From assembly GCA_951406725.2 (NCBI GenBank), contig OX597836.1, positions 2,356,001 through 2,420,000 of the forward strand: a stretch of DNA of 64,000 bases, written 5' to 3'. A program made the position numbers and the translations under genes. Below, in pieces: positions 53,479 through 53,690 of this stretch. Positions within the stretch are counted from its first letter, which is position 1, and each line of letters begins with the position of its first letter. The stretch is from Octopus vulgaris. Lineage: Eukaryota. Under the pieces are notes generated by a model. It did no database searches. It worked only from the letters and a program-made list of their open reading frames with translations, and was not told the origin of the DNA.

Positions 53479-53543
53479 CTATATATACATTTGTCTTTAT
53501 GAATGTGTGTATATATATATATATATATATATTTATTTTATAG

Positions 53544-53602
53544 AAGGAGCTTCTACAGGACTAGAACTGTTTCATTCAAAAGAAATCATCAGGAAGCTCC
53601 TT
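53544..53602 (-). ncRNA. Type I hammerhead ribozyme, near-canonical
   Basis: AAGGAGCUUC-CUGAUGA-uUUC uuuu GAAu-GAA-ACAG uucuaguc CUGU-A/GAAGCUCCUU: 10-bp stem I, intact core, GUA cleavage triplet. Confidence 0.85.
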
Positions 53603-53642
53603 ACCTTATTTACTGTGGTTAACTCCGACTCAACCCGGGACC

Positions 53643-53690
<48 letters not shown>

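Follow-up and report, generated by a model that had tools for sequence, protein, structure and literature searches.

The locus examined here raises the question of what a small hammerhead-bearing module embedded in (TA)n is, how it arose and what it would do to its host. It spans 115 bp (53531-53645) of the window, by which we mean the whole 64,000-nucleotide stretch of Octopus vulgaris DNA that was analysed (contig OX597836.1, positions 2,356,001 to 2,420,000). A preliminary description took the module to be essentially one canonical hammerhead ribozyme on the minus strand, likely to cleave itself and able to cut host transcripts crossing it.

Most of the motif was as described. The module was flanked by (TA)n on either side, and its minus-strand core was intact, with CUGAUGA at 53592-53586 and GAAA at 53573-53570. 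Stem III consisted of 4 bp with an 8-nt loop centred on CUAG, and the GUA triplet placed the predicted cut between 53554 and 53553. Stem II had 3 bp and a 4-nt loop, bracketed on the minus strand by U10.1 (53585) and U11.1 (53574). The motif presented the characteristic elements of a type I hammerhead, namely CUGANGA, GAAA, NUH, three stems and an open stem I, while the G10.1-C11.1 closing pair was replaced by U-U in 238 of 238 arms, tallied with a filter that allowed mismatches there. This U-U, previously considered the only flaw of the motif, is indeed present but is family-wide and typical of the Hydra clade, and U10.1-U11.1 is described as a tolerated natural hammerhead variant (PMC3088659). 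Likewise, the 10-bp stem I could be drawn as reported (53602-53593 with 53553-53544), although four of its ten pairs derive from the junction and the stem of the parent has 6 bp. Top BLAST matches given as '100% over 45-115' suggested a native 10-bp stem, a reading that we discarded because they reflect a common junction instead.

The view of the module as a single hammerhead could not be maintained, since the hammerhead occupies only 59 of the 115 nt and positions 53602-53645 are the tail of a mobile element on the opposite strand. The comparison with Rfam gave no match at gathering level; the sole hammerhead row at E<=10 was Hammerhead_3, with 15.5 bits and E 1.9 against a gathering score of 48.5. 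The whole module folded no better than its shuffles (z -0.45), and the 60-nt hammerhead gave a z of -2.36. As listed in Table 1, a 68-nt hammerhead arm and a 44-nt tail piece lie head to head between (TA)n runs. Element coordinates count from the predicted cut; in the sense unit the hammerhead (-45 to +6) is followed by AT-rich sequence and then by the tail, to about +91. By its sequence, the module is a stub with two arms head to head, left in (TA)n by a Penelope-like retrotransposon (PLE) of the Hydra clade; its family membership is demonstrated by the copies described below. The locus is an ordinary transposon stub, one of thousands, a nature that the preliminary description missed. Sixty base pairs from the module, at 53353-53470, lies a long, near-perfect, MITE-like inverted repeat (about -80 kcal/mol).

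Table 1. Features of the module and its flanks, in positions of the window
Feature	Position	Strand	Basis
Left (TA)n target microsatellite	53510..53530	.	Sequence
Inverted, tail-less PLE-end arm, element -45 to +23 relative to the cut	53531..53598	-	68 nt identical to an arm in locus L018
Type I hammerhead motif, predicted cut 53554/53553	53544..53602	-	Hardly any variation in core or stem columns of 238 arms
Junction bases, taking stem I from 6 to 10 bp in the window copy only	53599..53602	+	Parent has T, C or A before its 6-bp stem; related junction types seen
3' portion of the PLE 'tail', element about +48 to +91, in sense orientation	53602..53645	+	27-mer from the tail, 4,707 perfect matches
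Right (TA)n target microsatellite	53646..53706	.	Sequence

Related copies, which had been called for as a check, were abundant. A 25-mer across GAAA, stem III and the cut had 6,025 exact matches in the 2.8-Gb genome and its reversed control had none, so the hammerhead is not a chance occurrence. Variation across the 238 tallied arms was confined to N7, loop II and one base of loop III, and the base before the 6-bp stem I was T, C or A in all 100 of the arms listed. These results support a genuine type I hammerhead motif with related copies. The element family is young, its near-invariant stems too uniform for covariation analysis. The tandem arrays that were also to be looked for did not appear among the first 100 of the 25-mer matches, where close neighbours were opposite-strand pairs, not head-to-tail repeats. 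At one locus (L038, G000:C1:13117800-13124900), a segmental duplication is the probable origin of two hammerhead-plus-tail arms that lie on the same strand at a distance of 6 kb and have flanks in common.

Longer copies ran into a reverse transcriptase (RT) followed by a GIY-YIG-type nuclease. In 20 RT-EN loci taken from 44 matches, the hammerhead lay 1.5-4.9 kb downstream on the same strand in 19, and in four it also stood, with the tail, directly before the ORF, which is the partial-tandem pLTR layout. One copy (locus L163) has an open 713-aa ORF starting at +139 and carrying RWR, DKT, YRDD, CxCx5C, CxxC and CxH motifs. This ORF had no Pfam RT or GIY-YIG match of its own; it was similar (E 4e-08) to a protein with Pfam RVT_1 and GIY-YIG domains, and the lone Pfam match for a Hydra-type ORF, VtrA_C, fell below its own cut-off and was discounted. 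The element thus combines a single repeat-linked ORF for RT and a GIY-YIG-type nuclease with partial tandems (pLTRs), an inverted 5' copy and an optional tail, as in EN+ PLEs. It also has the marks of the Hydra clade, that is, DKT, CxCx5C, CxxC and CxH around conserved E and N residues, a (TA)n target and a hammerhead, with RWK appearing as RWR. The motifs of the ORF ruled out Naiad (N-terminal nuclease, DKA) and Neptune (DKG, CX2-5CxxC, CCHH), and by eye the protein resembled Hydra rather than Neptune proteins. We therefore assign the parent to the Hydra clade on motifs and by-eye protein comparison, rather than on a tree, and regard it as a new family, set apart by eye from Hydra-1_Obim by another hammerhead and another protein. 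At L070:1900-5160 and L070:7500-9000, (TA/TG)n-rich sequence fills about 3.3 kb between the ORF and the hammerhead of the element. This sequence is copied too, so the element spreads microsatellites, its own targets. Short upstream ATG frames were seen within the hammerhead and tail, before the ORF start, at L067:7790-7880.

To see where arms end, we took 100 loci within the first 41 Mb of contig C1, nine of them chosen for long spacing, and mapped the 5' ends of their 97 tail arms. The 3' ends of arms were fixed at two sites, about +22 and about +91. The 5' ends lay at -51 to -36 in 47 of the 97 arms and exactly at -45 in 23, calls at -49 to -51 being alignment overshoot at palindromic junctions. 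Only one arm ended at +1 to +6, the position of the cut, and 22 extended at least 200 nt upstream, so longer read-through templates were also used. An inverted partner accompanied 63 of the 97 arms (one call spurious). Genome-wide, the two arms met in a palindromic -45/-45 junction at 673 loci, and 29 loci were joined at the cut through stem I, with a swap of strands. Among junctions of (TA)n with a tail arm near the cut, 11 of 17 began at +1, nine of these being ambiguous through TA microhomology. No cleavage footprint was found as the main 5' end, and the template RNA would have been uncut where the cDNA spans the cut site. The +1 starts and the 29 cut-joined loci suggest that some cleaved templates may have served as the RNA source, although not as a rule. 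In the window, the arm at 53531..53598 runs from the putative capped transcription start to the putative upstream RT-initiation site, as placed by arm-end mapping, and the tail piece at 53602..53645, which continues into the ORF leader in full elements, ends at the putative downstream RT-initiation site.

The sequence upstream of -45 was in agreement with a promoter. Of 59 long arms, from subfamilies with differing spacers, 58 had a TATAAA or CATAAA starting exactly 29 nt before -45, and 2,882 arms genome-wide had a TATA box at exactly that distance. In published Hydra consensi, a TATA-like run could be seen by eye about 30-34 nt before stem I in two of six, too weak to use. At 48 loci a single base separated -45 from (TA)n, and it was G in 35, C in eight, A in four and T in one, while G was native before -45 in none of the 100 arms listed. 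A lone extra G was found at one of 47 internal truncations (100 of 307 matches listed; hand count). The background tempers this, as G makes up 59% of the non-A bases after TATATAT in the window; against that figure the enrichment (35/44, p 0.003) is modest. At six of 77 junction loci (e.g. G000:C7:6162383), the G was followed by T where -45 otherwise has A, through variation in a subfamily or through a copying error beside the cap. An untemplated extra 5' G marks capped full-length L1 insertions, where it has been read as a copy of the cap (PMC11702581, PMC2831318). From the spacing and the extra base we infer that RNA polymerase II starts on the first base of stem I (-45) and that the transcript is capped there. 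The hammerhead would then stand at the very 5' end of the element RNA, which is likely copied, in most cases, without having been cut.

The best explanation of the stub, to which we give a probability of roughly 70%, is that it was made by copying the capped 5' end of uncut element RNA from both DNA ends. Transcription by RNA polymerase II would begin on the first stem I base, 29 nt past the TATA box. The GIY-YIG nuclease would cut (TA)n, and each DNA end would prime reverse transcription inside the capped RNA, at +22 or +91. The RT would reach the cap after about 68 or 136 nt, often adding a cap-templated base, and joining of the two cDNA ends by microhomology would give a stub of about 200 bp, while long insertions would come from read-through RNAs of tandem copies. 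In the window copy, the tail arm would have lost its own hammerhead part and four junction bases would have lengthened stem I. Cleavage of such an RNA would take off a 45-nt capped leader. Both internal initiation by the RT and the use of uncleaved RNA have been shown in vitro for a Poseidon PLE (PMC11167929).

The same PLE stub could have formed without reading of a cap, if the pile-up at -45 and the extra G arose when the cDNA folded back onto its stem I complement and was trimmed and extended. Several features fit this: the inverted repeat of stem I ends precisely at -45 and the base templated next would give a G, the strand-swap junctions through stem I are of the expected kind, the four junction bases of the window copy suit such an extension, and the AGCT at -45 is palindromic, which favours joining. 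Fold-back should however yield a ladder of GG and AGG, and among 77 junction loci (100 of 183 matches listed; hand count) 23 had a single G; GG or AGG by itself occurred in none, and three had AGG within a longer stretch. Moreover, G also precedes arms that start at -44 and -46, and the 29-nt TATA spacing is kept despite divergence of the spacer. We consider fold-back unlikely.

The role of the hammerhead in its host was the other part of the preliminary description, which, taken to its full extent, gives a self-standing, efficient canonical ribozyme that cuts a minus-strand host transcript and is of consequence to the host. In its favour, the core and GUA are intact, loop III is long enough for a monomer, a dimer is also possible (-12.8 kcal/mol), and the lengthened stem I beats the hairpin of the parent. 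In the folding analysis, a hammerhead-compatible fold of the window copy lay within 0.3 kcal/mol of the minimum, with stem I at p 0.92; stem II had a p of 0.17 and the full hammerhead fold took up about 0.046 (about 5%) of the ensemble. In the parent RNA starting at -45, stem I had a p of about 0.9 until about +12, after which a hairpin over the cut site prevailed, and in RNA extended to +22 or beyond the hammerhead fold amounted to 0.0004-0.006. The window copy is thus predicted to fold better than its parent, its longer stem I overriding the cut-site hairpin. Against efficiency stand the weak stem II and, by inspection, the lack of any internal loop in the 10-bp stem I that could provide a stem I-II contact, although contacts of an unrecognised kind may exist. 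The metazoan PLE hammerheads tested so far cut weakly, or only with the protein of the element (PMC4209133; PMC11167929), and the family's own insertions are mostly copied from RNA intact across the cut. The window copy would probably cut slowly at high Mg2+; fast cleavage appears doubtful, given the apparent lack of a stem I-II contact and the weak or protein-dependent activity of its tested relatives.

An effect on the host found no support. The copy is one of thousands of young stubs, its long stem is a product of the junction, and it has no TATA box because its arm starts at -45. A screen of 36 open frames between 42 and 64 kb gave no host exon and no Pfam match above cut-off, and among the RNA contigs listed, which come without start, end, strand or level, none bridged the window junction with 31 letters on each side. 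The window hammerhead would be a promoterless passenger, affecting host RNA only if minus-strand read-through occurs, and an efficient host-relevant ribozyme is very improbable.

A non-LTR retrozyme, that is, a small tandem hammerhead repeat spread via circular RNA, would likewise be short, non-coding, of type I and present in many copies. Yet every part of the module maps to the end of an autonomous PLE, neighbours among the matches listed are opposite-strand pairs where head-to-tail hammerhead units without an ORF would be needed, and 5' ends stop at -45 without continuing into the 3' end of a unit as copies of a circle would, so that this origin can hardly be right. The least probable reading takes -45/-43 as a 3' splice site and the stubs as products of spliced RNA, for which there is a precedent in the Drosophila virilis Penelope intron ending at helix I (PMC4209133) and a YAG before CTTCC with a pyrimidine-rich stretch in most subfamilies, but upstream exon sequence was joined in none of 43 arms examined, the 48 (TA)n junctions hold a single base only and one subfamily has AAG.

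Copying of the capped, uncut end leads to a broader proposal, which is tentative and on which we would not yet bet. The hammerhead would be the first 51 nt of a capped mRNA and act as a built-in decapping switch held off by the downstream hairpin; only uncut, capped RNA would be copied, and the RT would read the cap. On this view, the thousands of solo and head-to-head hammerheads in animal genomes would be 'strong-stop' cDNAs that ran off at the cap, primed at both target ends and copied from a sense template, instead of random 5' truncations or antisense-template products. The statistics of this family bear on two open questions about PLEs, the purpose of the hammerhead and the origin of head-to-head ends. 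If the RNA does start, capped, with the ribozyme's first base, cleavage means loss of the cap, not release of a monomer, and short palindromic stubs are explained. With the open ORF copy and a template of 140 nt, both questions can be tested directly in an in vitro assay already published for a PLE. Hammerhead-bearing inverted PLE stubs are already known, and so are promoters within pLTRs. In a literature search that reached mainly freely accessible papers, and no subscription papers on the Penelope promoter, no report turned up of PLE insertions with an extra G, or of a capped transcript whose first base is also that of the hammerhead.

Other mobile elements were also observed. At 63651-63675 (+) of the window is a second hammerhead-like core from another family, with a G-C-closed 3-bp stem II and no clear NUH after GAAAC, possibly decayed. 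Another Penelope-like element lies at 37290-39284 (-) and has an inverted part near 40334-41536 (+). It contains a 665-aa open frame with Pfam RVT_1 and GIY-YIG; its DKG, CX2-5CxxC-like and CCHH-like motifs make it probably of the Neptune or Nematis type. Elsewhere, beside an insertion (L058:7124-9901, -), lies a 926-aa open LINE frame with an AP-endonuclease-like and an RT region.

Compared with known systems, the octopus family is closest to the EN+ PLEs of the Hydra clade as described by Craig et al. (2021, PMC8557442), with which it shares an RT followed by a C-terminal GIY-YIG, DKT, an RWK-like motif, the CxCx5C linker and CxxC/CxH, as well as a (TA)n target, an inverted 5'-truncated copy, an optional tail and a type I hammerhead. 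Among the 25 families listed there, 14 have U-U at the base of stem II (hand count), and several have an identical stem III arm sequence. The octopus family differs in its loop III (8 nt, against 1-3 nt in 25 of 25 listed), its tail (about 68 nt, against 30-40) and its microsatellite-rich ORF-hammerhead spacer of about 3.3 kb, where the published Hydra elements are generally <3 kb in all (PMC8557442).

Poseidon PAc of Anolis (Frangieh et al. 2024, PMC11167929) likewise has two internal RT starts bounding the tail, downstream of the hammerhead, an AT-rich target cut on both strands and uncleaved RNA as its main template. Its ORF starts inside the hammerhead, in contrast to +139 in the octopus family, and in the parts of that report considered here no capped start is placed at the hammerhead and no extra G is given. 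In metazoan genomes, Cervera and de la Pena (2014, PMC4209133) described thousands of solo minimal hammerheads and opposite-strand pairs, ascribed to truncated PLEs and of low activity in vitro; unlike the octopus family, these lack a usable stem III and keep G10.1-C11.1. Where the D. virilis intron ends at helix I (PMC4209133), the evidence from the octopus family favours a start site at helix I.

The Pen2a_Av pLTR of Adineta (PMC3846280) shares an inverted pLTR, a tail, a putative TATA and initiator within the pLTR and palindromic junctions. Head-to-head palindromes were explained there by self-priming on an antisense template, whereas the cap-like G of the octopus family points to a sense, capped template. 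The untemplated G at the 5' junction is shared with full-length L1 (PMC11702581, PMC2831318); L1, however, primes at the poly(A) tail and rarely reaches the cap, while the RT of the octopus PLE would start <140 nt from it.
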